From the NCBI GenBank assembly GCA_030141605.1, contig JAQGDQ010000214.1:1-64000 (forward strand): 64,000 nt of DNA, written 5' to 3'. Source of the stretch: Tubiluchus corallicola (lineage: Eukaryota; Animalia; Priapulida). The notes below the pieces were generated by a model. It saw only the letters and a list, made by a program, of their open reading frames with translations, was not told the origin of the DNA and did no database searches. Both the position numbers and the translations under genes were made by a program. Shown in pieces: positions 22,424-51,567 of the stretch; position 1 is the first letter of the stretch, and each line of letters opens with the position of its first letter.

Positions 22424-22714
22424 TGGCATGGAAAAGTCAATATTTCATATATCATGGTAAGCATTTTAATTTGCATAAATCTTAGTAAATCAGTGTGTTA
22501 GAAGATTGTATAGCTATTGAAACATGGAAACTGTGACCATCAGTGGCAACTCAATTATCTAGAAATTTTGGATTAAAGCCTGAAATGTAGCACAAATGGC
22601 TAGCAGTGAATAGAAAACTGAAAATTTGTGTTTCTTGTTTCATATTTTTTCTGTTTGAATGGGTGCACTATGAACATCAGTACACGTAGTACTATAAAGC
22701 TGTAACTTGTTGAA

Positions 22715-22864
22715 TGTGCCCACAGCTCCTGTGCATTGCTCAAGGACTTCATCCTTTCAGGTTTGAAAAATATCTTGGCTTGTAGCAAGGTCAAAGGGAA
22801 GTTTGTTAAAGCAATAACACCTTATTGGTGTCCTAAACGTCGTTAGGAGTTGGCTTTCCTGGTC
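22715..22864 (-). mobile_element. Gypsy LTR-retrotransposon RT fragment, downstream half
   Basis: DQESQLLTTFRTPIRCYCFNKLPFDLATSQDIFQT*KDEVLEQCTGAVG; continues the RT piece at 29526-29850 across the MULE insertion. Confidence 0.8.
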
Positions 22865-24046
22865 GCGAAATTTTTTTTGCAACTGAGTTCCGGACAGATT
22901 ATTTCCCTCATTAGCATTAACCAATCAGATTCCTCAAACAGCCATGACTACACACATGTAAACAATGGCAGGCGTTCGTCAACCACGTGCACATGTTTAC
23001 ATAACATCGGGCACTCACTTCAGTGCACTGTTGCCTGTTAATTGAACAGGGTAGGCCATGCTGTCAGCCCTTGCGCTCGGTTGGAAAAGAAGGCTAGAAA
23101 ATGTAGATTTATTTGGAACTAATAGAAACTAGTCCTTGGGAAATTTGGGGTGCTCTTTTTCAGGATATACTGTACAAAACCGCAGTTCATTGCCTTTCGC
23201 AATGTTCCATGGTCCAATAAGACTAAGAGGCCACAGTATACTATTAGTGTCAGTCTGTGGGCATACATCAGGGAAATAATACGGTCAGATTCGCCTGATT
23301 AGACTATGGCATTAACCCTTAAATGCAGTACTGCTGTAAAGTCCCTCGGGAGAGATCTCGACTCTCAAGATGGCATTTGAAAAGCCACAATCTCTCCTAT
23401 GAGACTACAGTAAGTGTTCAAACGATTTTCATGAATTTTTCCGAAATCTCTCAAATTTCTCTCGACAGTGGAGGGGTGCACGAGGACCTTTTGGGGAAGG
23501 GGGTCGAGTGGACCTAAATGATGACTTTGAGCCCTTGGCATTGCCCTCATGCCAAGTTGCAAGTTCTGTCAGCCATGTTTTTTCCCTCAGTCCCACTTAG
23601 GCTAACTAATTTCAAATCCATCTTAATTTAGTCATCTTAACCCTTAGTCATAGGGTTTTGAAAAAGGGTGCTCCAAAATTGGTAGCAGGTTCAAGTTTTG
23701 GTGGGCAAAAACATATATACCAAAAGGCAATCTAAGTCTTCATTTCAGAACCTTTCGGCCCCTCTGTAGGAAAATTTCGACACCTTATATTCTTGAGGAC
23801 AGCTCATAAAAGAAAAAACATTCTTTCTTTCACCATGTTCACATTGAACTATTCTTCATTTATTTTCAACAATCTTAACTTGTAACAAGACGGAATTTTG
23901 GTCTAAGGACTTCAAACAAAATATGTAAATTGTTTGAACTCTACGGAGATCGTTACCTGATTAATTGTTAATAGGCAGTCTAGTGATTACTGGATATAAC
24001 GTCAATGTCCAATCACCAAATGTAAATTAACGCAAAACAGTAAATA

Positions 24047-24988
24047 CCGTATATACTCGCATATAAGCCTACATCGCATATAAGCCGACCCCCTAAAACT
24101 GCTTTAAAATGGCCAGTTTTTGCAAAAACCCGTATATAAGCCGACCATCAACTTGTCTAATTTTACTCCATACCCAATCAACAAAATTGATCCCTTTTTG
24201 TCACATTTTGTTAATTGGGTATTTTTGGTTCATAGAAATTTTTTACTATAAAGATGTAAAATGCTTACTTTTATGTTACATACTAGAAGAAATAGAAGAA
24301 ATTATACATTTTGATATGAATAAAGAAGAAAATATTTTGTTTTCTATTTATTCACAAAAAATTATAACATTTCTGTTTGTTCTTAAAAATAATTAGAAAC
24401 CTTCAAAATCATTGTCACTACCACTCTCATCGTCTCTGTCTCAAACTTATAGAGTGTCTGTGCAGAAAACGTGTACACCAACCTGTGGAAGCAGTGAACC
24501 CTTCATATTTATTGGCTTGTGCAATCTTGAGGGCTTGCAAACGAACACTTAGCCGAGACACTCCATATCCATTTTGTCTCTGGGCTTCAAACCACTCGAA
24601 GATCTCCTTCTCCATTTCTGGGTACTGTCCATGTTTTGATCCCCTGTTCGCACGTTTGGCCTTAGGTGCAATATCCAGTGATGTATCCTTTTTCCATCGT
24701 CTGACATTGCTTTCATCTACACCAAACTTTCTTGCTGCCTCCAGGTTGCTTGTTTCTTCAGCGGCCTTTTCTAAAAAAAAAGTGGGTGGACGGCGATCCC
24801 CCTCCAATACACCACTGGTGACACACAACCAAATAAAGAGTCAGATAGCGATGAAAATGTGTGGCTGGAAAATTGGCATTAGTGTCTGTCCTTGTGTTCA
24901 TTTTGTTTCATGCGCATATAAGCCGACCCCCTGATTTCAGTATTGTATTTTATAGTTCTAAATTCGGCTTATATGCGAGTATATACGG
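24047..24988 (-). mobile_element. Internally deleted pogo (POGK-like) element nested in the MULE
   Basis: TIR CCGTATATACTCGCATATAAGCC at both ends, TA TSDs at 24045-46 and 24989-90; ORF 24427-24828 has Brinker-type HTH (AARKFGVDESNVRRWKK) and CENP-B/Tc5 HTH (FTASTGWCTRFLHRH), no DDE domain. Confidence 0.9.
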
Positions 24989-25399
24989 TAATTACTACAG
25001 AAATCAACACTTTTGTAGGTTTATTGAAATTAAAGCTGCGTTCAAATCATGAAATCTAAAGGATGTAAATCACAGTGAAATTTGTATGATAGCAAAATAA
25101 AGCTTTAACACTGACAAAACAGTTTTCTAATCAGAATTACAATTTATAAGCAATATACAGGGTGTGCACAAAGTAAAGCCCCATTCCCAAGGTAATGAAG
25201 GGATAGTAAGAAGGCAGGTTAGTGGGAGGCGCCATAGACTGTATTTCACCAGCAGGTCTGTGTCTTTTTACTGGCAAGTCCCAAGCTTCACTTCAAGAAG
25301 TTAATGATCGACATTTGGCAAACAGTTAATGTTCCTCCAGATACCTGAAAATGTAGTAATGATACGTCTTACCGGCAACTTCGGTTCTGCACAGAATAA

Positions 25400-28300
25400 G
25401 TCTGACTCTGCATACATCAACACTATGGCAAATGACTGTCTGTCCCATATTTGCGACTCAAATAGGTGACTGGCATATCATTGCCCTCACCATCTTCTTA
25501 GGATAGGACTGCACCAAGACCGGTTATAGATGCGTCAATTATAGATGTTTGTGACATCCTTTGTGTTGTACTACGTAAACATAATCGGATCTCTTCTCCA
25601 AGATTCGAAACGAAACGAAACTGTAACGAAAAGAGTAATGTGAATATCATTAATGTGAATCATCACAAAATTGCACTTGCACATAAAACTTTAAGTTGAC
25701 AAGAAAAGAATTTCCATATCTGTTATTTTCTTCAATTGCTAGCAAGATAAAAGTGTTAACATCTTTTTGGACCACCCTGTATTTACAAAAAGTATTTACC
25801 TGTATTTCCCATCTTGCAAGAGCACATTCCAACATCCATATCGACTGAGTACATCACACTTGTGTCCTTCTCACTGGGCACTTCATAGACACTAACAGCA
25901 ACATTTCTGATGAGACTGTGGTCAATTTTTGAGCAAGAGTTCACATTCACCAGGAAGCGAGAACGAAGATCACGGTCCAACCGGTTGTTGGCAATGTCAA
26001 GCAATCGTCGTTCGTAGTATGCCTCAAGCCGTGAGATGACAAAATCAACCAACTGAACAACATTGTAGGCCTTTGTACGCTGTAGGATCTGATCTTTCAA
26101 AATTCTCATTCCCGCTTCAGCATAATTATTCGTGTTGTTCCTACGGATAGGAAGGTTTGAGCGATAGCACAGAGCCCATGATTTTATCCGGCCCATAATA
26201 CTATCCAAGTGCTTTTGAACCTTTTCATATCGCTGAAGTGTCTATTCTCCCTGAGCTTCCTTATAAGCCACATCCAGTTGCTCAACTGTGTCACAATAGA
26301 CCAGTTTCTTAAGGATCCAAAGAAGTTTAGGATCCTCTTTTTTACACCGTTCTTGGACTCCCATAAGAAGCGCCAGAATGCTTGTAAAATGTGAAAAACA
26401 CATAGCAGGAGTGTTGAACCAGGATAAACCTCCTGCAGTGCCTGCTGTTCCGCTTGACTGTCATCAGTCATTATCACTTCTGCGCCCTGGCACCCTCGAC
26501 CAAAGTGTGATGCCTGACTGAGTAGGGCATTGTAACAGCGAAGGCTCGCTGTGATTGTTGCCTTACTTTCAGAGGTTGTAATCAGTACTCCTAGTGGTAC
26601 TCCCCCTGCTACGCTATGTGTAAGTATTAGGAACACACGGCATCCTTGCCTGTCCATATTTCCGGATGAATCTATGAACATAATTTCAGCGGCGGATTTG
26701 ATGGAGTCATGTACACGCTTCATAAGCGGTGTAACAATGGCAATGGCAGCTTGGTTTTCTTGTGTAGTAGTCATGTCCAAACATCTTTCGCTAAATCTTC
26801 CTTTTAATTTAGCGAGTTTGTTTTCAAGCTGCGAGAAAACCATTCCCCCACTTGGTTCACCATATTCCTTCTTGAAAGTAGCATAGTACAACCTAAAAAA
26901 GCAGAAAACACAAAAGGTCAGAGCCTGAAGAAGTGTCAGAAACATGACAAAAGAACTTTGAAAACATGAGTGCCTAAGGCGACATTTTTTTGATACATTC
27001 ATTACTGAGCAAGCTGCAATCGTGTCCAATTCCTACTTTCAGTTGAAAAATGTCTGTTGTCAAAATAAGAACTGGTAGCGGAGTGAAGTCACATGAGGTA
27101 CACCACATTTCTTGATTAAGCTCTAGGACCTCCAGAGGAGTCTTTTGACCACGTACCAAATATTCATTATAATCAGTTCAGCTTTAATGAGGTTTTTACG
27201 TATTACTTTCAGCAGGGTATTTATCAATAGGATACTTTAAGAGTCTTATCTCAGGAATCCTGAGATGAGGTAATCCTGTTTCCAGGGTCTGACGAGTGAG
27301 TCCCGTCAATATATCTTGCCCACTCGGCGACTCTGGGGACGAGGTTGTGGCATACCAGTGGAGAGTAGTGTTCCCAGTGTAAAACATTACTTACCTATAG
27401 CGATACTGTACATCAGGACATATGGCTCAGTCTCCACTTTTGACCACATACTCTTCTGGATCCTCCATTTGAAGGTCAAACCTGTGCAACTCAAGTGCCT
27501 TCGATGGGGTGTAGCCATTCTCAAACAATTGCAAGATATTTTGTTTGGTTGGTTCTGCAACATCTCGGTGTTTGAGTACAGCAGATGCCATGATAGGATG
27601 GTTATGCCGGAACTTGATCTTGACTGTCATTGGATAATTGGGCAGATGTGGGTCTTCGGAACTGAAATTCATAAAGAACATAATACAATGTAATTCCGAA
27701 TACCATCTGTGCTAAACCTGTTGAACTACAAAAAGAGGAGTAAAATATTCTTTCTATGCATACAACATCATTCCTTAAAAGTTGTTGGGAAAATTAGAAT
27801 GGCACATTCACTTCAACAAACATTTCAAAATAGGCAAACATGAAGAAAAGATGAGCATGCCATTTTAAAGGACACACCTCGATTTATTTTCTTCAGTAAA
27901 TACATATACTTTGCCTAGCTGTAGAGGAAACCTGAATTACTTACCGGTATTTCCTTTTATGCCCATCGATGTTAAAGAAACTTGTATTCTTGACTTTAAT
28001 CTGCAACCCAGCTGGGCAATTAGTATTCTTTCCAGCATGTGGCCCTTGCCCTTTGGTCTTTCTGGTCCTGTGATGGCAGAAGTAATCAACCTGTCAAATG
28101 TATGTTTAAGACACATGTAAACGATGCATCCCTTTAACCCTTCAACAACACTTGCTGCCTATTCTTCAGAAAAGGTACATCTTGACAATGGTTAAGGCTA
28201 GACAAAGAAAATACAAGTTTAGCATCAGTGCCTGCATCAGATTTAGTCTGCAGAAGTTGTAGACTGGAAAATGCAGGACAAGCAGTATGGTGTGGGTATA

Positions 28301-29428
28301 TGGGGGCACATGACATTACACTACAGGGTTGGGGCCACTTTTTTCATGCAGTCCACTAAATTCAAGTAAAGTCACAGGTGGGCGAGTGGCAACTTTTACT
28401 TACACGTATTTGCACAGATACAAACTATGATTTTGACCGTGACCATATAAAAACTTACTTTGAACTTGACTTTCTCTCCTGAACACTTTTCTGTCTTCAG
28501 AACTCGATATGTAGTACAGCTTTTCTCTTGGAATGACTTTAACCATAATTTTGCCTCTTCTGCTGCTGATATGGGAAGGTGAAGTATGATATCAAACCCA
28601 TGCCCCGAGTCAGGATTATGCACTAACTCACACAAACAATGGCTGAAGTCATCAGGTAGAATTTCCTGAAAGTGATAGGAAAAATCTTAAAAGATCTGAA
28701 GAAAGAGCTTTAAATTCCATAACTAGCATCTCACACAGGCCGAACCTGACTATAATCACAATTTATATATCCTCTCGAGTTACAATACATCCAGAATCTC
28801 TCACAGGTACACACGTGTGCATCTCTACTGAGCAAGCTATACAAAGTCTCACAAGGCTACAAAGGCAGAGGTTGGAAAGTACTGTGTCTCATAATGCTAC
28901 TCTAAAGTCTGGTGTAAGACGACTAAGTATTCTGTTGCCACACTTGTTAACAGGCTCTTTTACATAGTTTCGTTGACTATTTACAAATTTGTCCAACTTT
29001 CTCAAAGTGGTGGACCATAGATATAAATGCTTTTTGAAGACAAATGATAACATTAAAATTACTAGGTCTATACACACTATATGGCACACCCTGTATATTT
29101 TTAAGAACACAAATGTACGTCTACGTTTCCTACATACGATAAGGTATACATGCAATTACAGGCGAAAAGAGCGCACACAGGAGAAAAGTAGTAGACACAT
29201 ATCTTTTATCGCTGTACGAAAAAAAAATCGGTTTTGAGGTGCACAAAAGTTCTTTGTAAACAAACTTTATGTATGATTTTCGAGAGACAAGGCCCAGTGA
29301 GTGATCTATAGTCTTACACCGCCACCACATTTAGCCATTAGTTAGCAATATAATCTTACCGCAAATGAAGAAATTTCAGAGTATTTGCCAGGTTCCTTCA
29401 CATAGAACTCACACACGTGGACCGCCAT
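25400..29428 (-). pseudogene. Spliced MULE transposase with SWIM finger, disrupted
   Basis: Exons approx. 29428-29360, 28665-28459, 28091-27946, 27661-27395, 26892-25800; motifs FIDSSGNMD, IMTDD..AE, LLLCVFHILQA, NNTNNYAEA, CSCKMGNTG; stop at 27427 and frameshifts near 26340 and 28035. Confidence 0.85.
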
Positions 29429-29525
29429 CTTGCTCTGAAGCGCCCCTGAACAACATAGACGCTGATTGGTTAATGCAAATGAGGAACATAATCTGTCCGG
29501 AACTCAGTTGCAAAAAAAATTTCGC

Positions 29526-29850
29526 TTCCTGGACCAGGTGTATCGACTAATCTCCAGACTTGGCATCCAGTTTGGAAAAATAACGTGCTCCATGAAACTT
29601 GTGGCTCAGTTCTTCCGATGTTGGTTGTTTATGTGGACATCGCTTCACTGTTTCGTTGAGTTTAGCTGGATCAAGAATTCTCTAATGCTGCCATCACCTG
29701 TGACTGAGTATGTTAGACTTGAATACCGGTCTGTGTGTTTTTCTGCACCTCGGATAACCCCTAAATCTTCTATCCTCCTGAGCTCCTTTTCCAGTGGATA
29801 GGCCATTTCCTGTGGAACTTGTATTTCCATTGCTTATCTTTCAAACATTC
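29526..29850 (-). mobile_element. Gypsy LTR-retrotransposon RT fragment, upstream half
   Basis: LEKELRRIEDLGVI...DGSIR / LDPAKLNETVKRCPH...FHGARYFSKLDAKSG, typical Gypsy RT N-terminal motifs, frameshifted. Confidence 0.8.
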
Positions 29851-30423
29851 AGAGGAGTGATTCAACATTGTGCATCCTTGGATGATGACAATATCTTTGC
29901 CACCAACAAATAGTTGAAAATTGCTCTTCTAATATCACAAGTTTTCACACAACTGAACTAACTGATACCATTATATAAAACAAATTTTCCATTTATCAGT
30001 TTAAGCAGTTGCAACTTGTTTGTATGCCATGTATGTACAACTTGTATATGCTTACATGCATAAACGCAGCAGTACAATACTACAATGTACGAAAATTACA
30101 AGGTTATGTACTTGTGACAAATGAATGAGTGAGTAAACAAGTAAAAAAATTTAAATGATGAAGCACGATTTTGTCAAGCTAAACGCTTAATTCTAGTAAT
30201 ATAGAAAAATCAATAATGACAATCGAAATATATAACAATCATACAAGAGAAACCTGTAGCGGAATGGCTTCATTGGCATGGAATAAATATGTAAAAGATG
30301 TATAGAGAAATGTAAATTTTATATTACCTAATCCAGTGGGTACAAAAGTGTCCCATTTCTGTTGTATAAACTTTGATACATCTAATTGCACCACTGCATG
30401 GGTCGGCTTTCTCTTTCCATGAT

Positions 30424-33400
30424 TAGGGTTGGCATTTCCCGACCCGGGATCGCTTGACCGGGAAACGGGAACGGGATTGGCGCAATCCCGGGAAACGGGA
30501 CGGGAAACGGGACTGGACGGGATTGAGGGAAAACAGTGATGTTTGAGCTAATGATGAACTTTGACAGACCATAAATACCAACAAAAAATAAACAAAAACA
30601 CTATACTCGGGGCCACGCCATGTTTATAGTAGTTGACTGAGTTCTAAATATGTAGAGTATGTACTGACATAACGAGTTTAGTGTTTAGAAGCTAATCACT
30701 TACAATATAATTCTGGCGTGGACCCGAGTATATACATAATTAATTACTAATACAAACGCATGTAATATTCTTTCTAAACTAGAATAGAACATAATTAATT
30801 ACATTGATATCGATATGATGTGCGATTGCGATGCGATGCGATACTATAGCACGATGGCATGAGAAAATACAGACATGCCATTGTGATTTTAAATTGAGAT
30901 TAGCATAATAATAATCATCCATCAGTCAGCAAGAAGAGCACAGAAAAAGGAGAGACAAACTTTGACAAGACAAACTACTCAAACAACCAAAAGTTATCTT
31001 TTAGATGTAAGCTCAAATTTCAAATCCAGTCTGTCAGTAGCAGTACAGTACCCCTTGTCCGTACTCCGTACTCCAACTCCAAGAAAGTATTGCATAAAGC
31101 CGACATATTTAAGTATAATATGCTTTCAGAAAAGTGAGTGCGTCCAGAAGCCCATCTCCCATGCGTGCACGAAGTTTCGTGTTGAATAAAGCGCACGCGG
31201 AAAACGCACGTTCCGCTTCGCAGCTAGTGCACTGTATAGCTGCTAGATTGCGGTATATTATTTCCAGTCGTTTTGGCCTGACAGATGTTGTCTCCCAAAC
31301 CTTGAAATCTAAGTTGAAGTCCCCTTTTTTCTCTACTGCTGCAACCGCTCCTGAAGACATCATTGATTCTATTTCCTTATTTAAAGCTTCGGCCATTGAA
31401 ACGGGTGGTGGTGGATTGTTGACTACAACTGCTTCATCATTATCATCTGGATCTGGAATGATCCGAGCTTCCTCAATGACAGGCGCAGGGTGAAGTTTGT
31501 CGTAAAGTGCAATGATAGACTGTTTAATATCCTTCTTGTTTGCCATTTTCATTTGAGGGAATATCGGAGCAGATTTTGGAGAATCCGGGTTATGCAAGTA
31601 CTTGTACATATCTAGTAGCTTGGCAGGACGTCTCTCGAAGAACCTTTTCTCTATAGCCATTTTCATGTTCTTGCAGAGAACTGTATCTTTTTCTCCTAGA
31701 GTTTTCAACATGAAGCAGAAGACGGTATCAGCGGCCAATAAAGTCATACTCCTGTCCTGTAGCTTTTTTACAGCGATTCGCACCGGGGTCAGTGCTGCTA
31801 CTAAATCTTCCAACATATTAACCTCATCAGTGGTGAAATTTTGTTTCATCTTTGGGAAATCAACCATAGTTTTCTCAACTTGTGGCTTTACTTTCAAGAA
31901 CCGTTCCACCATGTCAACACATGAGTTCCACCGGGTCTTATTGTCTCGTATCAGAGATAGAGTTTTTCCATGAGCATCCATATTATAATCTTGGAGTTTG
32001 TCATTTTTTAACGGACTTCTGCGAATTTTCACCACTATTTTACGCACTTTTTTCACTGTATCTTTGATAATAGGGTTCATTGGGCGCACTGGCAAGGCTT
32101 CTTCATCCTCATTAACTTCATTATCATCATCATCGTCATCCTCATCATCGATAACTTCTTCTCCATCTTCTAAATCATCATCATCATCATCCTCTTCATC
32201 TTCGTCTTCATCTTCCTCTTCCATACCACTATATATAACATCCTGTACCGCTAAATGTATACCATGGGCGTAGCACGCCATATGTTCACTGGCGATCTTA
32301 CGTCCGAAACTGAGCATGACAGATGCGCCGTCCGTAGTCGCACATATAACATGGCATGCATCATCATCCAATTCAATACCATAACGTTTGAGCTTCATCT
32401 TTACTATTTCGACAGTTTTAACAGCAGTGATACTGCCCTTCGCTCGAGCCAGGCCAAGATTCCAGTATTCATTATATGTATGTAAATTAACATTGACATA
32501 ACGCCGATTTTGGTTAGATGTCCATTCGTCCAACGTTATCCCAAAGCTCACGTCATCACTTCGCCTCATTTCTTTGAATTTTTCCGCAATTCGTCTTTCA
32601 ACTCTTCACTGTGACCAACAATTATTTTTCGCAGAGTGTTGTGGCTTTTAGGTAGATTGAAACCTCTCCTTTCGAAACCATCTCTTATAAATTCACTCTT
32701 TGCGATAGTATTTAGAGATATTCGGTCAACGGCCGCTAATTTACATATCAGTACAGGCATGCAATTTTCAGCTTTATTATCTGGAGCAGTAAACTTATCT
32801 ATGCGCTGTTGGAGTTGGATTCTTGCCTTCTTTGGTTTTGATATACCTTCTCCATCCTCCCCATCCTTTTCCAATGATATAGACTTGTGCATTGCCTTAA
32901 GGTGTCGCTTCATACCGGATGTAGAGCCTCCGTCTCTCTTTATTACCGACTTACATAGTTGACACTTTGCTTTTTTTGTGTCATTGGGATCAACGGCGAA
33001 GTAGTTCCATATTTTACTAGTACAACCTGTAGGCATCGAAATTTTCGATTGTACCTTCTGTCCGGTATCAGTACCACTACCACCTTTTGAAGAAACGCTC
33101 GATTTTTCATTCTCAACTACAGCAGAACTATTGTCAGAACTGGCCATCATAAAACTCAGAACAGAGACACCAATCACAGAACAAGATGCACAATCAGAAT
33201 CAGGCAGTATAAGGCAACGTCGCACACAGTCCACACAATACTACAAATTTCAAATGTCAATATTCCTTCCTATGCGTCTCACTCACTCGCCGGCTACTAA
33301 AACAATGACAATGCTATATCTGAACTGAATTACCCGTGTAGCTGAGCTGCTGTACTGTACTGCCTATGCCTAGTTAGTTGCCTAGGCGATCGACATGCCA

Positions 33401-33556
33401 ATACACGCACATGCAGCGGAGTGAGTGACTTCCTTTTTTTATTATTTTTTTATTAATCCCGCGGGATCCCGGGATTATAATTGTACTCCCGGGATTGGCC
33501 AAATGTGCCGGGATCCCGGGAAACGGGAACGGGATTCAACGGGATTGCCAACCCTG
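30424..33556 (-). mobile_element. Complete hAT DNA transposon, 3133 bp
   Basis: TIRs TAGGGTTGGCA.../...TGCCAACCCTG, perfect 8-bp TSD TCCATGAT (30416-30423, 33557-33564), subterminal CCCGGGA/GGGAAACGG repeats. Confidence 0.95.
31109..33150 (-). CDS. hAT transposase (BED finger, DDE core, C-terminal dimerisation domain) split by one frameshift
   Basis: WNYF..AKCQLC..STSGMKRHL (BED), LDEWTS, TTDGAS, CYAHGIHLAV, TRWNS, TSCEAERAFS; single frameshift in a 5-nt homopolymer at 32579-32583. Confidence 0.9.
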
Positions 33557-34554
33557 TCCATGATGCAAACGGTGCTTACATGCCCTAGATGGTGTCCAGC
33601 ATAAGCCCAACTTGTATCTGTGGCTTGGGCATACTGTCAGATTTCTATATTCTGGTGAATCAAAATCAAATTTACCAGTCCTTGCAGGAAGCAATTTCCA
33701 TTCCGTAGATATTTCATATTTTTGAAGATGCAAGCGCCCTATATGCGGTCCAGTGTATTTAGTACAGACTAATAGATTCACAATATTCGTTTCGTGCAGA
33801 TAACTAGTCACAATACAGCATTTAACGCTGGTAAACAGCCCAGAAAGCGAACATTTTAATTCAGCAGTGGCCGCCATCTTGAATGCTGGAGTCCAATCCT
33901 GTCGGTAGTTTAACCAATGTGCTGTCCAGGCCCCTAGTTACCAAAGATGAATACTTATGACGTTTTGAAGTATTTTGGCAAGATTTGACAACTCATGTTT
34001 ACCCACACAAAGCTTTTTGATGACCTATATTTTCACCCTGATATATGCCTCTTTCAGGGGTCATTTACAATAGGGTGGAAATTCGCTCCATCGAAATTGT
34101 CACTGCAGCATAGTGGGATGGGATGCTGTATTCACATACATATCGATATTGTATGTGGTATATCGAGATTGTGGGTGTCCCTGCCCCCACAATGGGTGAG
34201 ATATAAGACTTTGAAATGACTGAGTATTTGCATCTTGTGCATAATGCGAGCTTAAAGACCCCCAGTAGAGCCGAAAAGTCATTTTGGAGAAGATAACAAG
34301 ATCCAATACTGTGCAGAGTCAGATCTATTCAAACTCAGTGGTTGCTGCATGGCTAATCCTTCAAATATGAGTAAAAATAGAGAAAAATAGATACCTCTGC
34401 TACTATGAGGAGTTGGACCAAGCGGATTCGCATAGTGAATACTAGTGACTAGTGGACCTCATACCCGAACTTTGGTCCGAATCGGGTTACCTAACCTTGT
34501 GCCGGAATTTTTCGCATCGTCTCCTCGCGGACACGTTCACGGGTTTTTTTAAAT

Positions 34555-36640
34555 TAATATCAAAACTATATCGCCTACATCGATGTTGTTTTTCTTTAAG
34601 TTCCACTTGCTCCGATGCTGCAGTAAAGGAATATACTCTTTTTGTCATCTCTGCCAAAATACATCGGCCATATACTGAACTTGACGCCAGTGTTTTTTAT
34701 ATACAGTCTAGTGGCGAGAGGCGAGATAACGGGAATATAACGAAGTTAGTCTATATGTATATACATAATAGTTGATTAACATGGTGTTCCTCTATGTACA
34801 TATAAAATATATTTCGCATTATGATACCAATCAACATTAAATCAGAAATGAAAAAATGTCATAAAAATAATCTAGAAATAACCCACATAGAAACGAACCA
34901 GATAGCGACGGTAGTGGGACTTAAATGCACTGATGATACCGGCGTCCATCGGCTGCAGGTGGCTGGTAGTGGTAGGCGGCAAGAACTCACAGCGGATATG
35001 AGTTAAGTTCTCAGGGATGATGTGACTGGGTGCATTGTCCATTAGCATCAAAATATGGCGGTTTTTACTCGCCATTCTGTGGTTGAGGGACTTCAAAAAT
35101 TCATCCAAAATTCCATTAACCATCCATGCTTTATTGTTGGCGTAATAGTCGCAGTAGAGCTTAGGATTGAACTGTTTGAAGCACCTTGGTTTCCAAGTTT
35201 TACCGATGATCAATGGTCTGAGCTTGTCTGATCCATCAACGTTACTGCAAAGCATCACCGATATCCTGTCCTTTGGTTTTTTCACGCCCTTCGTCTTATC
35301 CGTCGTTGTCAATGACCTATCTGGCAACATTCGAAAGAATAGACCGGTTTCATCAAGGTTATAAACGTCACTCAGTTCAAAATTTTTTATTACACGTGCT
35401 GCCTGTTCTCTGCCCGTATCAAGAACGTCTGAATCTACACCAGCACTTTCACCGCAGATTTTCTTGCTGCCAATGGCGAGGGCGAGAAGCGAGGGTGGCG
35501 ACTTAATGAGGTAAATATCAAAGCAGGAAATCCGTCCTGGTACTTTCTATGGCGAGAGACGAGTTTGGCGGCATAACGAGGGGCGAGATAACGAGGCTAG
35601 ACTGTAAGTTGTCGGAGGCGAAGCTTCCAGATGGCAAGACTGGTCCGGCACGAAGTAGCAGCAAATGATTTGGCGTTAAAGCTTCGCAGTCTCTAGCATC
35701 ATCAGACACAGCCGTCATTGGGCGACTATTCAGTATGTTCTCGATTGTGCAGAACAACGTATGTAAAACTTCATCATCCAAGATCTGCTTCTCCATTACA
35801 AATGACAAAACCTTTTTAATACTTTTAATCAATCTCTCCCAAATTCCGCCTGTATCAGGAGAGGTTGGAGGGTTGAAACACCAATCAATGTTTTTCTTTT
35901 GAAGCTCCTTTATTAGTCTCCGGTCTTCATTCCAAGCATCAACAGATTTTTGTAGCCATGCATGTGATGATCAAACCATAACATTTTACACGAGTTCTGC
36001 CTCGTTTAACGAGATACGGCCCAAAGCAGTCTAGCCCCACATTTTCAAATGGGGCTGCTCTCTCTTTAGGCAGGTCTGCCATCTTCTGCTGCATCAACTG
36101 TTCTTGCTTCAAACGACATAGCCTACATTCACGGAGTATGCGTTTGGTTAAAACTGTGAGCCCGACCATCCAATATTTTTGCCTGACAAGAGACATCACA
36201 TGTTCTTTCCCACTGTGACCATTCATCTCGTGATACTGGCGAACAATTAACTCTGAGTATTGATGCTTAGGTAGCAGTACTGGATGCTTAGCACAGTCAG
36301 CAAGGTTAGCATTTCGCAAATGTCCCCCTATAACACATACTTGGTGGCTGGACAAGACAGGATACGTTTGGAAACCGAAACTTTTCCTTTTTGCAGTGCC
36401 CTGTACTCTTACCTGAAATACTTTCTTTGCATGCATTGAATAATAGCTTGCTCGGCATCTTCTAAACCTTTTAGCGATAAAGTCTTAGTGGCAGGCCTGG
36501 AGATAGAGTTGCATCTGCAAAGAAGTGCTTCTTTAACTTTCAGAGTCCAAGCTACAGCTCATTTAAGCTTATATGCAAATGTAAAATGTTGACAAAGCAC
36601 GTCCATTGTGTCATTTGTTTCTCTGCCAATATAAGCCATG
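34555..36640 (-). mobile_element. BEL/Pao LTR-retrotransposon integrase/C-terminal fragment
   Basis: KHPVLLPK, GHSG..RQKYW, MADLPKER..PFENVGLDCFGP, WERLIKSIK, LTPNHLL, and beyond the Tigger WRQVQYMADVFW..EY.PLLQHRSKW..VGDIVLI. Confidence 0.88.
34704..35604 (-). mobile_element. Deleted Tigger (TIGD-like pogo) element nested in the BEL element
   Basis: Ends CAGTCTAG.../...CTAGACTG with TA on both sides; DDE_1 motifs YNLDETGLF, KDRISVMLCSNVDGSDKL, LMDNAPSH, FLPPTTTSHLQPMDAGII. Confidence 0.88.
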
Positions 36641-36959
36641 TATACTGAAACGGTATACATGTATATATATTCGCAACATCTTGTCAATTTTAGTTGCTAA
36701 GACTACAGCACATAGTTCGAGCCTAGGAACTGTTAGTGTCTTTAACGGTGCTAATCGCGTTTTACTAATCAACAGCTTGCACTTCACATCTTGCTCACAA
36801 TACGTGCAAAGCAGTATTTAAAATTTTAAAATAACAATGTACCTGTAAATATTTGTACGATTTAAGGTACAGTGTAATAAAAAAAGTTAGAAACTGTATA
36901 ACAGAAATTTGCTTCATGAACTATATTTCTTGTATGACAATAAAATAAAAGGTGCATGT

Positions 36960-38736
36960 ACATGTAGATCAACACCGATAAAGTCCTAAATGTCTCCGTT
37001 ACACTGCTGGCACACGTAGAATGGATCATCTGTGGCCTGGTTGCACTTGCCATAGAACCACTGGACGCAGTTCAGTCACTGCACCCAGTCGGGCCCCGTA
37101 CATCCCCGGTAATTCGTTCCACATTGAAAGCAGATGTCCGTGTTCTCATCGGGATTATCCACTTCTGGATTTCCTGCAGAGTTAGTCGAAGTCGAAGGAC
37201 CAGCTCCATCATGTCCATGGAAAGCGGCAGCTGCTAAATCAACTCCTGGTTTATGGCTAACCTTCTTCCCTCTCTTGGGCTTCGTCGTAGTGCTTTCTCC
37301 CCTACGCTCCTTCAAAAGAGCAATCAAAGCGCCAGCCAAGTCCCTGCCAATGTTTGAGTTACCGGCATCTGGCAACCTCTTGGGTACTTCATAAGGGCAC
37401 GTAGCCACACGCCCGGAAGCCAGATGGTAAGCTTTCGCGAAAGGCTTGGGAGGACTGATCCCAGAGGCTATTGAGAAGTTGCGGGAAAGTATCTTTTGGT
37501 ATCACCCCATTCCTTTTTGTCTCCATCCGCCACTTGTCCAGGATTTGCTTCCATCTCACTTTCAGGCCCTTGAAGACTGCCACGTCAAGCGGTTGAAGAA
37601 GGTGCGTGGCATTGAGGATCAAGCTGATGAAATGGATGTCATGTTCTTGGCATAGCCTAATTACCTCTGGAGAAAAGTGTGACGCCAAGTTATTGCCAAG
37701 GAGAACTTTTTCCCAAGAAGTTGGTTGGCGTGAGGAATAAATAAGGAGGTGAACACCCCGCTCAAAGGTCTCCATGTTGAACCACCCACTTGTTGTGCAA
37801 TCATAGACAGTGCCTCGTGGACCTCCTTTTGTCCAATTTTCGTAAATGTTCTTGGCTTTCTATACTACCATAGGTGGTAGCATCGTCCCGTCGGCGGCCC
37901 CGCAAGCCATCAGGGAAACAGTGACCTTGGAGTGGTCCTTGATGTTCTCGATGCGTCTTGTTTCCCGACGAGTAAGGATTACTTTGGCGCCGGGATTGTC
38001 CGTGATGTTGGTCTCGTCGAAGTTGAAAATGTTCGATGGTGGGACGTTTTCAATAAGGGGCCCTACGTTGGCAAGGAAGGCTTGAAGCTCTTGTGCACTG
38101 ATCTTCGTGCGGGCGCCCTTGATGTTGCCAGCCACGCTGAAAACCAGATTGTTCCTTCGGGCGAATGATTTGACAAAGTCTATTCCAGGGGTGTTTGCCT
38201 TGAATCGTTGTTCCTGGATTTCCTTCGTGTCAAGAACACTCTTAATCAGTAGTCGGAGATCGATGGCAGTCATTGGGAACCCCCACTCAGCGGCCACATT
38301 GGAGTGCGTTGGCGATTTCGTGCTCCTCGGCGGTGGAGAACACTGGCTGACCTCCAGTCTTCCGCGGATGACTTCCTGAGAGTTTGTCAAAAGGGTCTTT
38401 CTTGGAACTCCGAATTGCCTTGCCGCTGCGCTGATTGTCCTGTTGGTATTCTTGACGGCATGTAGGGCAGCTTCCAGAGCTTCTGGGGTATAATTTTGGT
38501 ATCTATGACCCGGTACAGGGCTGTAGGTGCGTGGCATGTTAAGTAGCAAGAAATAGTAGACAAATAATATGTAGCGCAGAATGGAATACTTCTAGTGCGA
38601 ATTGAAAGAAGATAACTGTCGCAAACAGATATAATGGCAGTGATCATGATATCTGTTCATTAAACACTGAGCAATAGTTACAGCAAACCTACAATGGCCA
38701 TTATGTAAGGGGTGGCGAACTCACCCCGTTTTACGG
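36960..38736 (-). mobile_element. Pogo/Fot1-like transposon (psq-HTH, CENP-B HTH, DDE_1, C-terminal PHD-like finger), frameshifted
   Basis: MPRTY...AAARQFGVPRKTL, NIFNFDETN, THLLQPLDVAVF, CFQC...DWVQ..C.QWF; 5' end CCGTAAAACGGGGTGA with TA at 38737-38; 3' TIR not found. Confidence 0.85.
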
Positions 38737-39957
38737 TATGTATTTATCACAAACTAATAGTGCTGCTATCTTTCGTAGGCCTTTGTTTTATGCTCATTAT
38801 GCGAGAGTCACTTGTCTATCAGCAGAATTTTGAAGTTACTGGCAAGTTTGAAAGGTAACCGTCAATGATTTAGTGACAAGTAGTCGATGATTATGGATCA
38901 TAATACCATCACTTTAAACATTTGATAAAATGAAAATGAGCTAAAAAACAGGTTTTTGGAACCTATTTGTGGCACAAGCAGACAGGCGTTATTGATAAAC
39001 TGGCATGAACTTCATTTATTAAAGTTTTTTCTAGCAAGAAAAAGTAGGTCTAAACAATTTTTTAAGCCCAATCCATGCTTTTTTGCTCAAAAGCCTCGAA
39101 ATAATACCACTGTGTAATCTGCCAGAAAAATGCGAAACAAAAAATTGTCTAGGAACGAAGCGGTAGAACAAGGGTGCGCAAATGCACAAACTTTTGATAT
39201 CAAAACAAGCCCTCGGTCAAGCCACTAATAATTATAAATTTGTCGTCACTTTAATCGCGAGATTACAGAACCAGCAGAATTAATCCATTTTATAACATAA
39301 CGTAAGTAATTTAACAACGTTAATTTAGCAAGGCTAACAAAATTGAATAACTAGCACTAACGTAAACTGCGCTAACGGTCCCAATGTACATCTTCACATG
39401 TATTCGCCCACACTGCCCTAAGTCTTTGACAATGATATTATCTTTGATTATTGTATCACATTTTGCACATCTCCTTAAACTTTGTGCTAGAATAAGTTAA
39501 GTAAATCTGTAGATAAATGATTGTCGCATTAAAATCGTAAAAAATAAAAAACTTACCAAATTTTCAATTAAGCAAAGAAAATAAAAGAGAAAACATGTGC
39601 CAGGCCACATTTCCTTCGCATTTCATATTCCCAAAATTCACAATGTTTGTACAATACGCATGTGCTGTATGTCAATTTCTCAAAGACACTGCAATTTCTG
39701 AAGAGTCTTACGACTTTGCCATCTCGAGGCATGCATTTCTCTGAAGTCACACAAACAGTAGACAATGCAGTTTCACAAGCAAAGTATAGCCTGTTGTAGT
39801 AGTTTAACCCTGTTACACGGGTTTAGACTGTATCTAAAGGTTTTACAAGCAAAATGACGACAAAGATTCAAAATGCATAACATATGCGAGTGCAGGAAGT
39901 GCGACTCAAAGTTTCATAAGCTGTACCACGATTAGTATTTCACATGCGATAAACACT

Positions 39958-39992
39958 CGTGTGTGTGTTTGTGTGCGTGCGTGCGTGCGTGC

Positions 39993-40022
<30 letters not shown>
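39958..40022. repeat. (GT)n/(GCGT)n microsatellite
   Basis: Directly visible. Confidence 0.95.
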
Positions 40023-40023
<1 letters not shown>

Positions 40024-42049
40024 GGTTCTTAAAGGTTCTTTGCAATGGCTGAACTACTACATTTTGCTTTATTGTCATCAGATATGCTGATTTGCTCATT
40101 GCTTCAAACACTGCATTCGACTGATCCTAGACTAAACTAGAGACATCAGTGTCCTCTATAGACTTTCCGTTGTTGTTCTCAGTATTTCCTCCTCTGGCTA
40201 ATTCTACTGTATTGTAAGACAGGCGATAATATTCTACACAGTTGATATGTTTGCATGGTACTTGCATTCAAGTGCTGCATCATTTTTAGGAGATGGATCT
40301 TCTAATAAGGAGTTGCTGAGGAAAGTTTGTTGCCAATAATAAAGGTTAGAAAACTTAGGCAAAAAACAAAGTGACATGTTATGACTTATTTGGCTTTAGC
40401 TGTTAAAAACTTTCCTAGTTGTTCTTTAGTCTGCCTTATTTGGTTGCTTACATTCTAAGTGATTCTATAATACTACTTCTTGGTGTCCTGATACAACGTT
40501 TTTAAGAATCGTTAAGAATTTTTAATATACAACGCTCGGAAGTGGTGCTGATATTCCACTAGTTTTTTGTTGAATTGCTGTTATGCTTACTTGTCTTGAG
40601 AATTCTCTCTTATTTTCTTTTATTTTGCAATTTTGCATGCCCACAGTCTGCAATGGGCATACGATGATGATGATATTAAAATTTTTACTTCACATCTCTT
40701 ATTTTCATTGTATTTGCAGCCAAGTGCAAATATTGGTTGATTGCATTTCTAGCAAGTCTACCATGATAGGATGCTACCAGACCATCTGATTTGCACATCT
40801 GCTGCCTAACAAGATATCCAAGAAAAATACAATTTATATAGTTTGCATCAGCAGGTTTCTGGGGTTTGCTGTATCTTCTGCTTTCCACTATAATGAAGAA
40901 GTGCTTACAGCGCTCCATCCCTCCTGTTCATATATCCATTTTCCAACAATAATTGCATCCTGTGTCATCAATTCTTTTTTCGGATATTACAATTTTAAAA
41001 TTATAAGGGGTGAGTGACGGATAAAATTATTTTTTTGTAAAATTGAAATTTGTGACACATTTGGAGAAAAATGTCTATGTCTATGTCTATGTGTAGATAA
41101 GCAATTTTAATAGCTACTGCATTCCTTTGTAAGCAGGTAGCCACAAACAAAAAAGGGACCGAGCAAGGTTACAAAGCAGCCCTAAATATAATTAGTATAC
41201 AGTACTTACATAATTATTATAAGCAAATCATTTTTTTAATAATTAATACTTAAAGTGCAAAACAAAGTGGCTTAGACTGACCTCAACATAACTGCTGTCA
41301 CTGCTTCTTGATTCTGGCGACTCTTCCGTTTTTGCCGTACTTGCTTCAGTTTTCTTCCTTGGTTGAAACTGAAATCCTTTTAATCCCACTCCAATCATAG
41401 ATTGCGGCGCTATTACCATTTCTTTGTCGGATGAATCCATAATGAAGTTATCAAAAGCTGGCGCAATGAAAAAAATTGATGCAACACTTTAGGCTTTAGA
41501 TGGCGAATAAATGCACGTGTTGTTGCGCAATATGCAGTATCTTCAAATCCGCCGTTGTTACTGCGCTTTTCGAAGATAGACATCTCTCAACAAATGATAT
41601 TATATGAGCTGCCAGGAAATTATCACTTTTCATTTTGAAAAAATGTTTATGTATTTTGAAAAACAATTTTTAGTGATGTGGATGGAAACTGTATACTGGT
41701 TTATAACATACACGAACATCTGCCTTCCTACGTTTATCTACAACCACTGAATCATGTATCATGAGGTTTATGAATTGTTTTCGCAGCTGAAGGGCGTAAC
41801 GGAAACTGGGTTCTTTTTACTAATGTTTTACGTCTTTTTGCGTAAGACTGACGAGATATTGCAATATGAGCCCAGGAAGAGTGAGCATCTGGTGAATAAT
41901 AGTAGTAGTAGTACTTCTGTGTGCTTGATGACAATTAAGATCATCATCAAATATTGCCTACACAATGCTTAGTGTGTTTTTACAGAATATCTCTAATTTA
42001 TTTTTTCACTATGCATTAATCCCATTTGTAATGCCATCTAATTGATCAA

Positions 42050-43050
42050 TATTGGCAACAATGTCATATTTCATAGAGACAGCTAGTGGGAGAATTGTCA
42101 TTGAACAAGAAGTTTCGCTTGGTTCCAATAGCAATGATCTTTTAATTTGATCTTTGACACTCATCGCCACATCTCCTAAGACTGAATCATAGCAAATAAT
42201 TCTCTGATGTTAATATATATTTATTCATTGTATGTGACAACAAGAGCATTGATAGTGAACAAATATGACACAATAGTGTTATAGCTTCGTTATCAATGTC
42301 AGCTGAATTGATAATACATGATTGTAGTTGTTGCTGATAAGCTTCTGTTTGATGACCTTGACAATCTGTTTAATAAAAGTGCAGACTCTTTGTCGTCTTT
42401 TTGTCTTATGGTTTCAGTTAAAGTTTACAACTTGAAGCAAGATTTCCAAACATTTGTCACAAGAGGACCATCATTATTTTGAGGATCAAGAAAAACCCAT
42501 TGGTCCATAACAGGTTTCAACTGGAAAAGGTCACCAACAACAATAACAATAACAATCCCTCCAAACATTTTTTAGTGCTAATGAATTCTTGTAAACGAAG
42601 GTTAATGACATTTAAAACAGCGATTATTACAACCGATAATTTCCTATATTTGACTCTAAATGTGCTTAAGTCCTTGGTTAGGATCAATTTTGAATGCTGC
42701 ATGTAAGGTGATACCATTAACATAAAACGCTGCTTTGCCAGTTGGGGCACAAACTAATATCCTACAGTTTGCAGGGTCTTCAGCTTCGACAGTATGTAAG
42801 TACTGGTGCAGTGCTTGATAAAGCCCTTTTGTAAGGACAAATTTGTCCACACCTGCACCTCAATTGAGAAAAACATGATGTGGTTCTTCTTTATTGTGCA
42901 GCTTTTGTAGGACGTGTGAAAATTTCTCTTTGTTCTCGGTCACTGATTGTACTAGTTTGTGATATTCCTGATCAGGAATTCTTGTTGGCACAGACTGCAT
43001 ACTTTCTGCTTGCATTTGATTTGACGTTTATCCAATATCAGCAGAGATAT
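42050..43050 (-). mobile_element. Helitron PIF1-type helicase remnant
   Basis: GAGVDK, CAPTGKAAFYVNGITLHAAF, GDLFQLKPV, LTETIRQKDD; many frameshifts and stops. Confidence 0.85.
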
Positions 43051-43051
43051 C

Positions 43052-45876
43052 TTAATTTACAGAATTAGCCTGCATTACCCCATTCAATCTTAACATACGA
43101 CTGACTATGGACGACACTCCTGTAACAGCATCAAACAAACAATTATAAAACACCCTAAAACCACCAATACGCCTTCTTGACGTTGAAGCAGCCTGAACAT
43201 TACCAACATTTCCTACATCAGAACGAACTACAGAAGCAGGATAACCCAGATGCCGCAAACGCGAAGAAAAAACCTCCATCCTTTGCGTCATTGCGTCATC
43301 CATGATTTGAGTCATAATGCAAATAAACCATTGGATTTTGAGGCTTCACATGCATATAAATCATTGCCTTCCTTCCCCTAGTACCAGATAAACGCCACTC
43401 CAAATCAAAGAATACAGCACGCTCAAAATCCAACTTTCAATTCTAAAGACAAACTTCCAGGATAATATTGCTTAATGACATCCAAAAACATCAAAAGATA
43501 ATCCAAATGAACCAAAGCTAAGCCATTAAAAGCATTACTTTTAAAGAACCTCACATTGCTCATTAAATTAGACTGATCCTTATACAACCTATACTCACAA
43601 AATATCAAAACATTATTAACAGCTGCCAGAGAACTCTTAGAACCCATAAATAAACCTGAAACCTGCCTATATATGTAATCCCCCACCTAAAATAATTCTG
43701 ATCTATAGACTCATCTAAAAGAAGCAAAAAAGACTCTATATCGTAAAAGTCAACACCCAATATAAGCAAACTCGACTTAACACTAGAATGTACATCAGCA
43801 TGACTCACATTAGCATATAATTCAGCAAAGTCAAACTCTACTATTGCTAAACGAAGCGAACTATCCAAAGTTTTCAAAACAGCAGCCGCACTCGAACTAT
43901 TTATAACCAAAGTTTGTACCCCAAATTCAGCCTGCATTCTCTGAAGCAATATTTCATTTATCTTATCCAACTTCTTACCAACTAGTTCACTAAACTCCAA
44001 ATCCACTGCACCGTAGCCAGTTATAATAGGCCTACATTTCAACTGAAATTCGGTCTCTGGAGAACAATACTTTAATTTATGAACCTTGCAACCATTCCCC
44101 ATGCAGCCACCCATCAATAATGAACGAATATCCTCTCCTTGCGTGATATTTCCTTACATTTCTTGCCCTCCGAACAACCGCCTTATCAGAGAAAGTGGCT
44201 AAGCAATCAATGACACCATTGGTCCTTTCGATCATTTCGCCCGGGCAGTTACTAGCATTCGCTTCCACCTTTCTTTTCAAAGAGCTACTAGCATTCACTC
44301 TCTCAAAGTCTTTCTTTTTACACAAACCATTAACATTCATTTTCTTTTTCTTTTCAAGAGAGTTACTAGCATTCACTCTCTTACTACTCAACCCTTTAGC
44401 CATTTATAAGAGTTACTAGCATTCACTTTTATTCTTTCCTCCTTACAATTAGCTGAAACTTTCATAGCATCAGTTTTTCTATCTACTTTCTCCTTTTCTG
44501 CTAGCTTATGAGCCAGTTCCCGTTGTCTATTAGCTACAACATTTATCGTTCTTTTATGATTGCGTGCTAAATAAGAGTTTGGCAGACTGCTAATAACACG
44601 CTGCTGCTGATCATAAAGCTCTTGAAATTTATACTTATGTCAGCTAATACCTTGAGTTTTGATGGGTCCGTGTTAATCTACAAATCCCAAGGCAAATATG
44701 TAATACTATTATACTAACCACACGCTAGATATATATACACAGTTTTAAAACACTTGGTTGAACAAAACAAACCACTTCGTCATTCACGTTGACACCAATA
44801 CAAACTGTGCAGCTACGCGGCTTGTGACACACAAGCAACCCACTGAAATATTTTTCGTCATACCTAAATAAAATATTTGTAATCTCTATCTTTGCAGATA
44901 GAAATCCGTATGACTCAAATAACTCAATATCTCCGCTCTTGTAAATCCCACTGGCTTTTTCCATATATTTAGCAAACGTAAAATATACTTAATTAAAGCA
45001 GTTTCTACAGATTGTTTCAAAGTCCGAATTAATTTCGTTATCTGAACTGATAATTTAGGTACAAAACCAGTGCCTTGACTTAAAAAATCAATTTTGCTCC
45101 TTACTTAATTTCTGACCAGTAAAATTATGCACGCGAGATGTTAACCCGCTACTTGACTCTTCTCAGCATCACGCTCAACCGACCTTATGCCCCGATAATA
45201 TCCATCAATAATGCAACTCTCTAGTGATCTTAATGCTCGTAATAAATGCCTATACAGAATAGAATTTTTTTTTCTTAACTAATCTTGGTAAAGATAAGCC
45301 TGCCATTTTCTTATCCAACATAGATTTATGACTTTGTAAGTTCCTATATGCATCCCCTTCAAGCCGAACCAAATTTCTTAAAGTGTCAACATTAGACTCT
45401 ATGGAATCACGATCTTCCAAAGAGAGCACACCGCCGCATCGAAAACTTAAACTGTTAGTTAAACTTATGGAATTGTACTTACACCTTAACACTGCACTAA
45501 CATAAACAACACTCAGCTTGACCAAGACAACTACGTAAAGAAACACAAAAACATTAAATGAAGATTTCAACACATGCTTTCGATAAAAGGAAATATACTT
45601 TCTTACCACACCCTGCCCGTACTTCAGATGAAACGAATCCCTGCTCCCATTAAACAAATCACTCACCAAACCAAAAAATGTAACCCTACCACACCAGCCT
45701 CCGAACAAAGGCAGCCCAAACGGTTTAGCAGACTCTGTAAAAATTTTTAAATTGATTAAAACATTTATAAGCACCATGTTTATCAACAATATCACAAATA
45801 AAACATGCATGCAAAAACTAAAATGATCAAATACACTTGCAAAAAAATTACGAAGAAACATTAAGAAAATGCCCAA
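43052..45876 (-). mobile_element. Penelope-like element reverse transcriptase, degenerate
   Basis: VHNFTGQKLS..FLSQGTGFVP, SDKAVV, KVHK..KCRPII, FDFAELYANV, NYFRWGDYIYRQVSGLFMGS, YLHYDSNH, LRHLGYP in the correct PLE order; no YxDD or GIY-YIG recognisable. Confidence 0.8.
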
Positions 45877-46273
45877 ATCCTAAAAAATCAAACCAACTTT
45901 ATGCACCAGTTCCATCAACAATACCTCAACCAAACGCTACACACAAAAATTAAAATAATAAAAAAAGGTCACACAAATAACAAAAACAAAAACAGCTCAA
46001 AAACCAAAATTTTTAGAAAACCAATTAAAGTGCAAATCGTATCAATACAAATACCATCTAAATCACAGACATAAATTAAAATAACCAAAAGTTATGCAAA
46101 AATGACAAAAAAACAAATATTAAAACAAACCCAAATTTTTTTAATTAAAAAAAGCATAATTTAAATAATGTACACAAAACTTTAGATGCACATTATATAT
46201 ATATATATGTAAAGAGCCATAAAAATTACATACATCTAGTGTAGCTATTTAATTAATTGGTTTATTTAATATG

Positions 46274-46454
46274 TTTTACCGAGGTTCGGTTTCCTCTATA
46301 TATTTTTTATTTTACATTTTTTTAGTTTTTTTTTATTTTTTATTTTGTGATCCGATTTTTTAGAGAGCTTAGGTATGCTCTTTCTTTCTTGCTGATTTTT
46401 TCTCATCGTAATCCTGCAGAACACAGAAAAATCCCAAACTTAGACAAAACAGAT
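46274..46454. repeat. About 180-bp direct repeat, copy 1
   Basis: Near-identical to 49585-49765. Confidence 0.92.
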
Positions 46455-46520
46455 AAATATATGAATTAGAAGTACACACTAACTATGTCTAAGATGGACA
46501 CATTTAATATGTTTCCTAAC

Positions 46521-47708
46521 CTACTTCCCCTTACACCTCCCTGCTTTTGTTAAATAAATTAAACTCCTAATCTCAACTAACAATGAATCATAAGTACAAC
46601 TACAACCACGACTCAAATGAGCAAACTCCTCTGCCTGTTTTAATATGCTAGAACTTAAAGAAGAAATCCTCATATGCATGCCACCCAATGTCTCCATCTT
46701 ATCCAAAATACCCTGAAAACGAGTTAGTAAAAATCTGTCATCTTTATCTGCCGAATCAAATAGACTAAATAACTCGGATGCATCGTTCTTTAAATCAGGA
46801 CACTGTTTATCTAAGAAAGCTAAACTCTCCCTACTAAGGCTATAATGCTTAGGTTTTACCTGCCAAGTCCCCTTGGACCTCTCTGTCTGCTCTACATGCT
46901 TATCTGCACTTCTCCTGACAAGATAATTATCTATTTTCTGACCACTATAGCGAGTAGGTATCCCTAACCACCCTCGCATGCTTACCCCCTACAGCCTCCT
47001 CCATCAAATAAGTCCTTATAACCCTTAAATTTGAATCATACTCTAATATTGCCTCAGTCTGCACATCCTTATCAAATGAACCACCATCCTCATCTTCAAA
47101 CCAAGAATTGCGCAAGCTACTCTCCCCTTTCTTACTAACCTCCCCTTTTAGCAACATAGCTAAACCACCCTCATCACATAACACAATTTCATTATGATCA
47201 TCATAAGATATTGCAGGATTCTTCGGTTTTAACTCTAATGAACCTGTCTTGGAGTTATATCTAGACACAATATTTTTACTACTTACTTTGTCCCCTGAAA
47301 ATCCCAAAGAAGAACACACAGAAGAAGTAGAACGTTTGCTACCACTAGCACCTACTACACAGCTGTACCCATTTTTTGCAAACCCCTTGATTTAGAAACA
47401 ACTTGAGTGTGTTTTTTAACTGATAAACTCTCCCGGTCTGCCAAAGATGCTGTCTTCCGCATCACAACCTGCTCTGCACGACCTCCTTTATTAAAATAAT
47501 TAAACACATTACCAGTCACATTCTCTTTATCGGCTACCTCACTGCTGACCTTCTGCGATGAACCTCTACCAATTCCCCTTGATGTTGAACTCCCAGAACC
47601 ACGAACACCTCCCGACCTCAAATCTTTCAATAGCTCAGTCAACAACTCCTCTGACGATTGTTCTAATGAAAGAACAAATTCATCATCATAATAATGTAAC
47701 AATATCAA
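46521..47708 (-). pseudogene. Frameshifted ORF of about 390 codons, unknown function, upstream of the PLE RT
   Basis: Three adjacent co-oriented ORF pieces (47708-47355, 47319-46945, 46979-46521) with the same strand-biased composition as the RT region. Confidence 0.5.
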
Positions 47709-51435: not shown

Positions 51436-51567
51436 AACTGCTTGAGACTTACTAATTAACATTTTGCTTACAGCAGAATCTTCTTGATATACACCCGGTC
51501 TTTATTTTTATTTATTTATTTAGTCTTCCGTTTTGTTTCTTTAAAAACTCGCACACGCACGGTGCTG

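Follow-up and report, generated by a model that had tools for sequence, protein, structure and literature searches.

The window, 64,000 nucleotides of contig JAQGDQ010000214.1 from the priapulid Tubiluchus corallicola, is animal DNA with spliceosomal introns. It carries the plus-strand gene of the RNase P subunit RPP21 and, directly downstream, a 25-kb nest of unrelated, broken transposon families, all of which are antisense to RPP21. The gene matches Pfam Rpr2 (E 2.6e-9) and encodes a protein of 152 aa with two CxxC motifs; its four exons are joined by GT-AG introns and contain no internal stop. Its stop codon lies at 22421-22423, and the first transposon remnant begins at 22715, 292 bases further on. 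Just upstream of the start codon there is a 70-bp tandem duplication (19493-19640), which is skipped by one contig of X1, a sequencing run that possibly represents the source sample.

Between 22715 and 47717, all 11 transposon remnants that could be oriented, by Pfam, homologue search, a PDB match, Atlas or reading by eye, lie on the minus strand (Table 1). Seven of them score above Pfam cut-offs, one is identified by 159 homologues, and the evidence for the other three is weaker. A preliminary description of this DNA had named ten such minus-strand remnants, all of which we recovered; the eleventh is a second Gypsy-type piece. About 74% of the region 22715-44153 is assigned to oriented elements. 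The two-sided probability of a single orientation is 0.008 for the eight strong elements and 0.001 for all 11, with no correction for the post-hoc choice of the stretch and for how many windows were scanned. The count covers coding remnants, between and beyond which non-coding repeats lie at 33940-34550, 38750-41900 and 48600-51500. The preliminary description had called the richness in cut-and-paste DNA transposons unusual; 6-7 of the 11 elements are DNA transposons, and this dominance is the only unusual feature of the array.

The one-sidedness was evident from systematic Pfam scans, which covered 240 stop-to-stop open reading frames (ORFs) of at least 45 aa starting at 22400-49000 (123 minus, 117 plus) and a six-frame translation of 22001-49152 in which stops were read as X (27 frames per strand). 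On the minus strand, these scans detected seven elements above the curated cut-offs and one below (RT_RNaseH, E 0.001), while none of the 117 plus-strand ORFs and none of the 27 plus-strand frames contained a transposon family; the lone plus-strand match in the array was a weak, unrelated Hydrophob_seed. In the flanks, Pfam found no transposon family in 250 of 276 ORFs of at least 45 aa, the other 26 being excluded as simple repeats. This flank screen, consisting of stop-to-stop ORFs and two small stretches, was less sensitive than the scan of the array, but at equal, ORF-level sensitivity six elements in the array (26 kb) still compare with none among the 250 flank ORFs. Rfam yielded no match across the whole window.

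Table 1. RPP21 and the oriented transposon remnants downstream of it
Feature	Position	Strand	Evidence and remarks
RPP21 (RNase P subunit Rpr2/Rpp21)	19799..22423	+	exons 19799-19882, 20177-20277, 20920-21008, 22239-22423
Candidate RPP21 poly(A) signal	22572..22657	+	variant hexamer ATTAAA, then U/GU-rich tract; putative function
Gypsy-type reverse-transcriptase (RT) remnant, downstream half	22715..22855	-	halves separated by MULE; PDB RT chain, E 0.025
MULE DNA transposon, broken transposase	22865..29525	-	Pfam MULE 1e-8; terminal inverted repeats (TIRs) of ~72 bp; 9-bp target-site duplication (TSD), 1 mismatch
pogo-type element, internally deleted, nested in MULE	24039..24996	-	HTH_Tnp_Tc5 1.1e-15; TIRs
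Second Gypsy-type remnant (RNase H region), inside MULE	25130..25560	-	RT_RNaseH E 0.001, below cut-off, ~25447-25539
Gypsy-type RT remnant, upstream half	29535..29842	-	translation read by eye; continuity across MULE duplication
Element X, downstream part	30287..30415	-	split by hAT; tblastn alignment of homologue P0072 runs on into this part, E 0.001
hAT transposon, young, full-length	30424..33556	-	zf-BED 2.7e-13; dimerisation domain 1.6e-5; TIRs
Element X, upstream part, N-terminal Cys/His region	33565..33937	-	159 homologues, best 1e-19
BEL/Pao long terminal repeat (LTR) retrotransposon remnant	34555..36830	-	Peptidase_A17 1e-11; Integrase_H2C2 2e-9; DUF5641 2.5e-12; split by Tigger-type piece
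Tigger-type (pogo family) DDE fragment in BEL/Pao	34704..35607	-	DDE_1 1.5e-34
Fot1-like/pogo remnant	36995..38738	-	DDE_1 1.1e-14; HTH_psq 2.4e-6
Helitron-type PIF1 helicase remnant, old, frameshifted	42383..42937	-	PIF1 4.7e-9; low X1 depth
Penelope-like retroelement remnant, tentative family	43055..47717	-	RT-like ORF 43608-44153

Nesting, copy number and age

The array is a product of successive nested insertions. The MULE splits the first Gypsy-type element and holds both the pogo-type element and the second Gypsy-type piece, the hAT splits a further element, here called element X, and the Tigger-type fragment splits the BEL/Pao remnant. X1 includes contigs that are 97% like the MULE. X1 contigs skip the pogo-type element, with joints from 24042 to 24999-25012, indicating that pogo entered this MULE copy separately. 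Together with the target-site duplications of the MULE and the hAT, these pogo-free junctions argue for separate insertion events. The two Gypsy-type elements are small, covering less than 1 kb together, and the only match of the first is the weak one to a single polyprotein RT chain in the PDB; Pfam found nothing in this piece, and a word-based homologue search was empty. Within the transposase region of the MULE, a minus-strand splice donor (27395) and acceptor (26892) enclose 26893-27394, which suggests that the transposase gene contains an intron.

Element X had been described as Sola-like, a family name that we take to be provisional. Only the N-terminal part is present here. Sola transposons are marked by a DDD transposase, terminal repeats and a 4-bp duplication. 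Pfam found no match to element X, neither in the piece in the window nor in the long homologue P0164, and a word-based homologue search was again empty. Its long homologues come from Mytilus and Nematostella, and the 701-aa Mytilus protein continues into a region that, read by eye, appears DDE-like. Element X is probably the N-terminal part of a DDE transposase of marine invertebrates. The hAT that interrupts it is flanked by an exact 8-bp TSD and carries one frameshift, near 32580. In X1, contigs of this hAT carry no more than one difference over 574-1208 bases; the one of greatest depth departs from the copy in the window by a one-base indel at the frameshift. The Fot1-like remnant retains one terminal repeat, at 38709-38738, whose partner end was not found.

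No family occurs twice in the array: apart from terminal repeats and short local ones, a BLAST search of the sequence against itself returned a single 190-nt duplicate, which lies at the right end. The two Gypsy-type pieces cover different domains and so cannot be compared with each other. The families differ widely in summed X1 contig depth, which is not a copy number, but may roughly indicate which families have many copies and would be worth silencing. It amounts to 2.5-6.4 in the RPP21 introns, 880-1270 in pogo, 65-214 in the hAT, 1239 in the Tigger-type fragment and 1689 in the Fot1-like remnant, and to 0.2-4.6 at 39150-40797. Given these uneven depths, the near-identity of the hAT to X1 contigs and the low depth of the Helitron, the locus mixes young and old as well as high- and low-copy families.

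The right end and other genes of the window

The family of the last remnant is tentative. Penelope-like elements are marked by a Penelope-like-type reverse transcriptase, a GIY-YIG endonuclease and a pseudo-LTR. The ORF found here has no Pfam match; its Atlas feature scores are 0.90-0.95, and RVT_1 occurs in 15% of one Atlas cluster. Over the remnant, GC skew falls to between -0.31 and -0.42 for 6 kb (43001-49000), unlike in the rest of the window. Near the ORF lies a 197-nt direct repeat (46261-46457 and 49572-49768) with a minus-strand acceptor-like sequence in each copy, and a further strong minus-strand acceptor is found at 51305 (stretch 51180-51305). In X1 contigs, 46482 is joined to 50387 at a depth of 243, and a second joint leads from 49574 back to 46274 at a depth of 140. 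These features suggest a multi-copy, intron-bearing minus-strand element at the right end; with this element included, the one-way array may reach as far as about 52 kb. The same region contains a very high-copy short repeat (49800-50700) with an inverted, 76%-identical copy at 54323-54611; its summed X1 depth reaches 21,258, and pieces of it are present too in X2, a run that is possibly of RNA. X2 yielded no contig over 19200-39150, RPP21 included, and nine partial matches to repeats over 39150-51500; it was set aside as uninformative.

Three further genes or gene parts lie outside the array. On the plus strand, an exon with a QRICH1 domain (2312-2496; Pfam 4.9e-11), which looks like part of a host gene, ends at a splice donor; next to it comes a (ACACAGAGAG)n array of 1.3 kb. 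A plus-strand gene for a flavin adenine dinucleotide (FAD)-binding oxidase of the berberine-bridge type (54701-58014) is probably a pseudogene, as stop codons near 57266 and 57577 interrupt the frame of its last coding part. On the minus strand, a single-exon S-adenosylmethionine (SAM) methyltransferase (61667-62530) has two close relatives (85% and 48%), followed by mostly microbial matches of at most 40%, which might point to an old gene transfer.

A predicted piRNA source downstream of RPP21

Based on the geometry observed above, we consider it on balance probable that the array is a uni-strand source of PIWI-interacting RNAs (piRNAs), whose plus-strand transcription we predict to come from read-through of the RPP21 poly(A) site. 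The transcription, piRNA production and selection that we infer would proceed as follows. A germ-line polymerase would pass the RPP21 poly(A) site and produce a long plus-strand RNA, which would be antisense to each of the elements and could be cut into piRNAs with a 1U bias; these piRNAs would then silence related copies in trans. Selection would keep antisense insertions, while sense ones, which would yield no silencing RNA and might end the transcript, would be lost. Such a trap predicts one copy per family, and the self-comparison agrees with this. The preliminary description had likewise proposed a trap for transposons that is read on one strand, the plus strand, and the anatomy fits: the array is dense, nested, antisense to its neighbour and holds each family once. 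More tentatively, and with less confidence than we place in a piRNA source as such, the array could be a young, still-growing piRNA master locus that is fed by RPP21 read-through, holds each family once and traps cut-and-paste DNA transposons for the most part, among them a hAT that was active recently. This hAT hardly differs from other copies in X1, so the trap model would predict that individuals with and without this insertion differ in hAT piRNAs and hAT activity.

Several observations weigh against a read-through piRNA source. The proposal is a prediction from DNA sequence, the stretch was singled out after the fact, and three of the 11 elements (the first and second Gypsy-type pieces and the Penelope-like remnant) have weak protein evidence. 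The variant poly(A) signal of RPP21 looks normal. The first plus-strand AATAAA after the gene occurs at 24319, and across the array this hexamer is not depleted on the plus strand (26 observed, 20.7 +/- 5.0 expected), nor are hexamers resembling 5' splice sites enriched on it (9 observed, 12.0 expected). The lack of poly(A)-signal depletion would also suit chance, with insertions accumulating neutrally as a nest in DNA that can be spared and their shared orientation noticed only after many windows had been read. Very many windows were scanned, and just 8-11 events underlie the uncorrected P values of 0.008-0.001. We nevertheless regard chance as an unlikely explanation, as the orientation is the very direction predicted from the abutting gene and the array starts right at the 3' end of RPP21. 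A similarly low probability attaches to a purging of sense insertions, without any piRNA role, under a plus-strand transcript such as a long 3' extension or the intron of another gene. Antisense bias in introns is documented, with only 32.5-45% of mouse intronic elements in sense orientation (PMC3446317), but at these rates P would be 0.001-0.013 for 11 of 11 elements and 0.008-0.043 for eight of eight, the study contains no DNA-transposon measurements, and purging would leave the pile-up of coding remnants here, and not in the flanks, unexplained. As RPP21 is complete before the array and ends at its own stop codon, we rejected the array as a long intron of this gene, and the alternative raised in the preliminary description, purging of sense insertions from a long plus-strand intron, is weakened if that intron is one of RPP21.

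The orientation evidence would be the same for a uni-strand piRNA cluster with a plus-strand promoter of its own beside RPP21, resembling flamenco beside DIP1. The plausible poly(A) signal of RPP21 would accord with this, and the flamenco promoter is placed 1743 bp from DIP1 (PMC4120762). However, the 292 bases between stop codon and first remnant are mostly 3' untranslated region (UTR) and leave little room for a promoter, and we find an arrangement of this kind rather improbable. Still harder to credit is that the remnants are not independent events but share one orientation as cargo of a single large mobile unit on the minus strand, captured in a Helitron-like or Penelope-like manner. The Helitron-type and Penelope-like remnants and the minus-strand splice signals at the right end would be in keeping with such a unit, whereas the MULE and the hAT each have their own target-site duplication, and X1 depth varies more than 100-fold between parts of the block and falls to 0.2-4.6 at 39150-40797. 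This variation shows that the block does not recur as a whole, and a single repeated composite element was rejected on the depth profile.

Comparison with known piRNA loci

The preliminary description had likened the locus to flamenco of Drosophila, and some of the likeness holds: flamenco and flam-like loci are one-way arrays close to a gene with one copy per family (49 of 52 elements in flamenco), as is the array described here (PMC10643416, PMC4120762). In other respects the two differ, and the comparison is a loose one. A promoter of its own is described for flamenco (PMC4120762), expression in somatic gonad cells is a further mark of this class, and these loci span hundreds of kb with a strand bias confined to Gypsy elements (PMC10643416), whereas the array downstream of RPP21 measures about 25 kb, mixes superfamilies and includes just two small Gypsy pieces. 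Instead of residing in an enriched Gypsy complement, its bias spans MULE, hAT, pogo, Tigger, Fot1-like, Helitron and BEL/Pao elements.

By analogy, the closest known kind appears to be the read-through clusters of mammals and mosquitoes rather than flamenco. The piC-DoGs of mouse, human and hamster (PMC11615739) consist of dense antisense transposon fragments over at least 10 kb directly downstream of an intact gene, and the same two traits, immediate downstream position and dense antisense fragments, are found at RPP21. The other two defining traits of read-through clusters are a transcript that continues from the host gene beyond its poly(A) site and single-strand piRNAs with a 1U bias. In piC-DoGs, read-through and piRNAs have been demonstrated and the cargo consists of long interspersed nuclear elements and endogenous retroviruses, while the array described here is known from its sequence and has DNA transposons as 6-7 of its 11 elements. 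The read-through core clusters of mosquitoes (10.1101/2022.08.22.504762) resemble it in belonging to an invertebrate, in starting directly after a coding gene, in their antisense cargo and in their trap behaviour. Their function has been demonstrated and they are rich in non-retroviral viral elements, of which Pfam revealed none here. In light of these two systems, the position next to a housekeeping gene, which the preliminary description had considered unusual, follows an already described layout.

Outside insects and mammals, the slugs Arion (PMC11615739) and Deroceras (PMC12506671) also have uni-strand clusters antisense to dense transposon fragments, for which gene read-through is not described in the available parts of these papers. 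An exact-term search, which missed most subscription papers, found no literature joining DNA-transposon-rich uni-strand piRNA clusters with molluscs or lophotrochozoans. A possible founding step for such loci can be seen in antisense Tirant insertions in host 3' UTRs (PMC13226689), where an antisense insertion in the 3' end of a transcript gives rise to piRNAs; these are single retroviral insertions, as opposed to the multi-family array downstream of RPP21.

If confirmed, the RPP21 array would be an invertebrate read-through piRNA cluster with an antisense bias across DNA transposons, compared with the Gypsy-only bias of flam-like loci in Drosophila. Should it also be a growing master locus, gene-driven uni-strand clusters would defend animals in general against every class of transposon, and they could be found from genome sequence in animals for which there are no small-RNA data. 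As the concept has already been published for mammals and mosquitoes, the gain would be one in range and not in kind.

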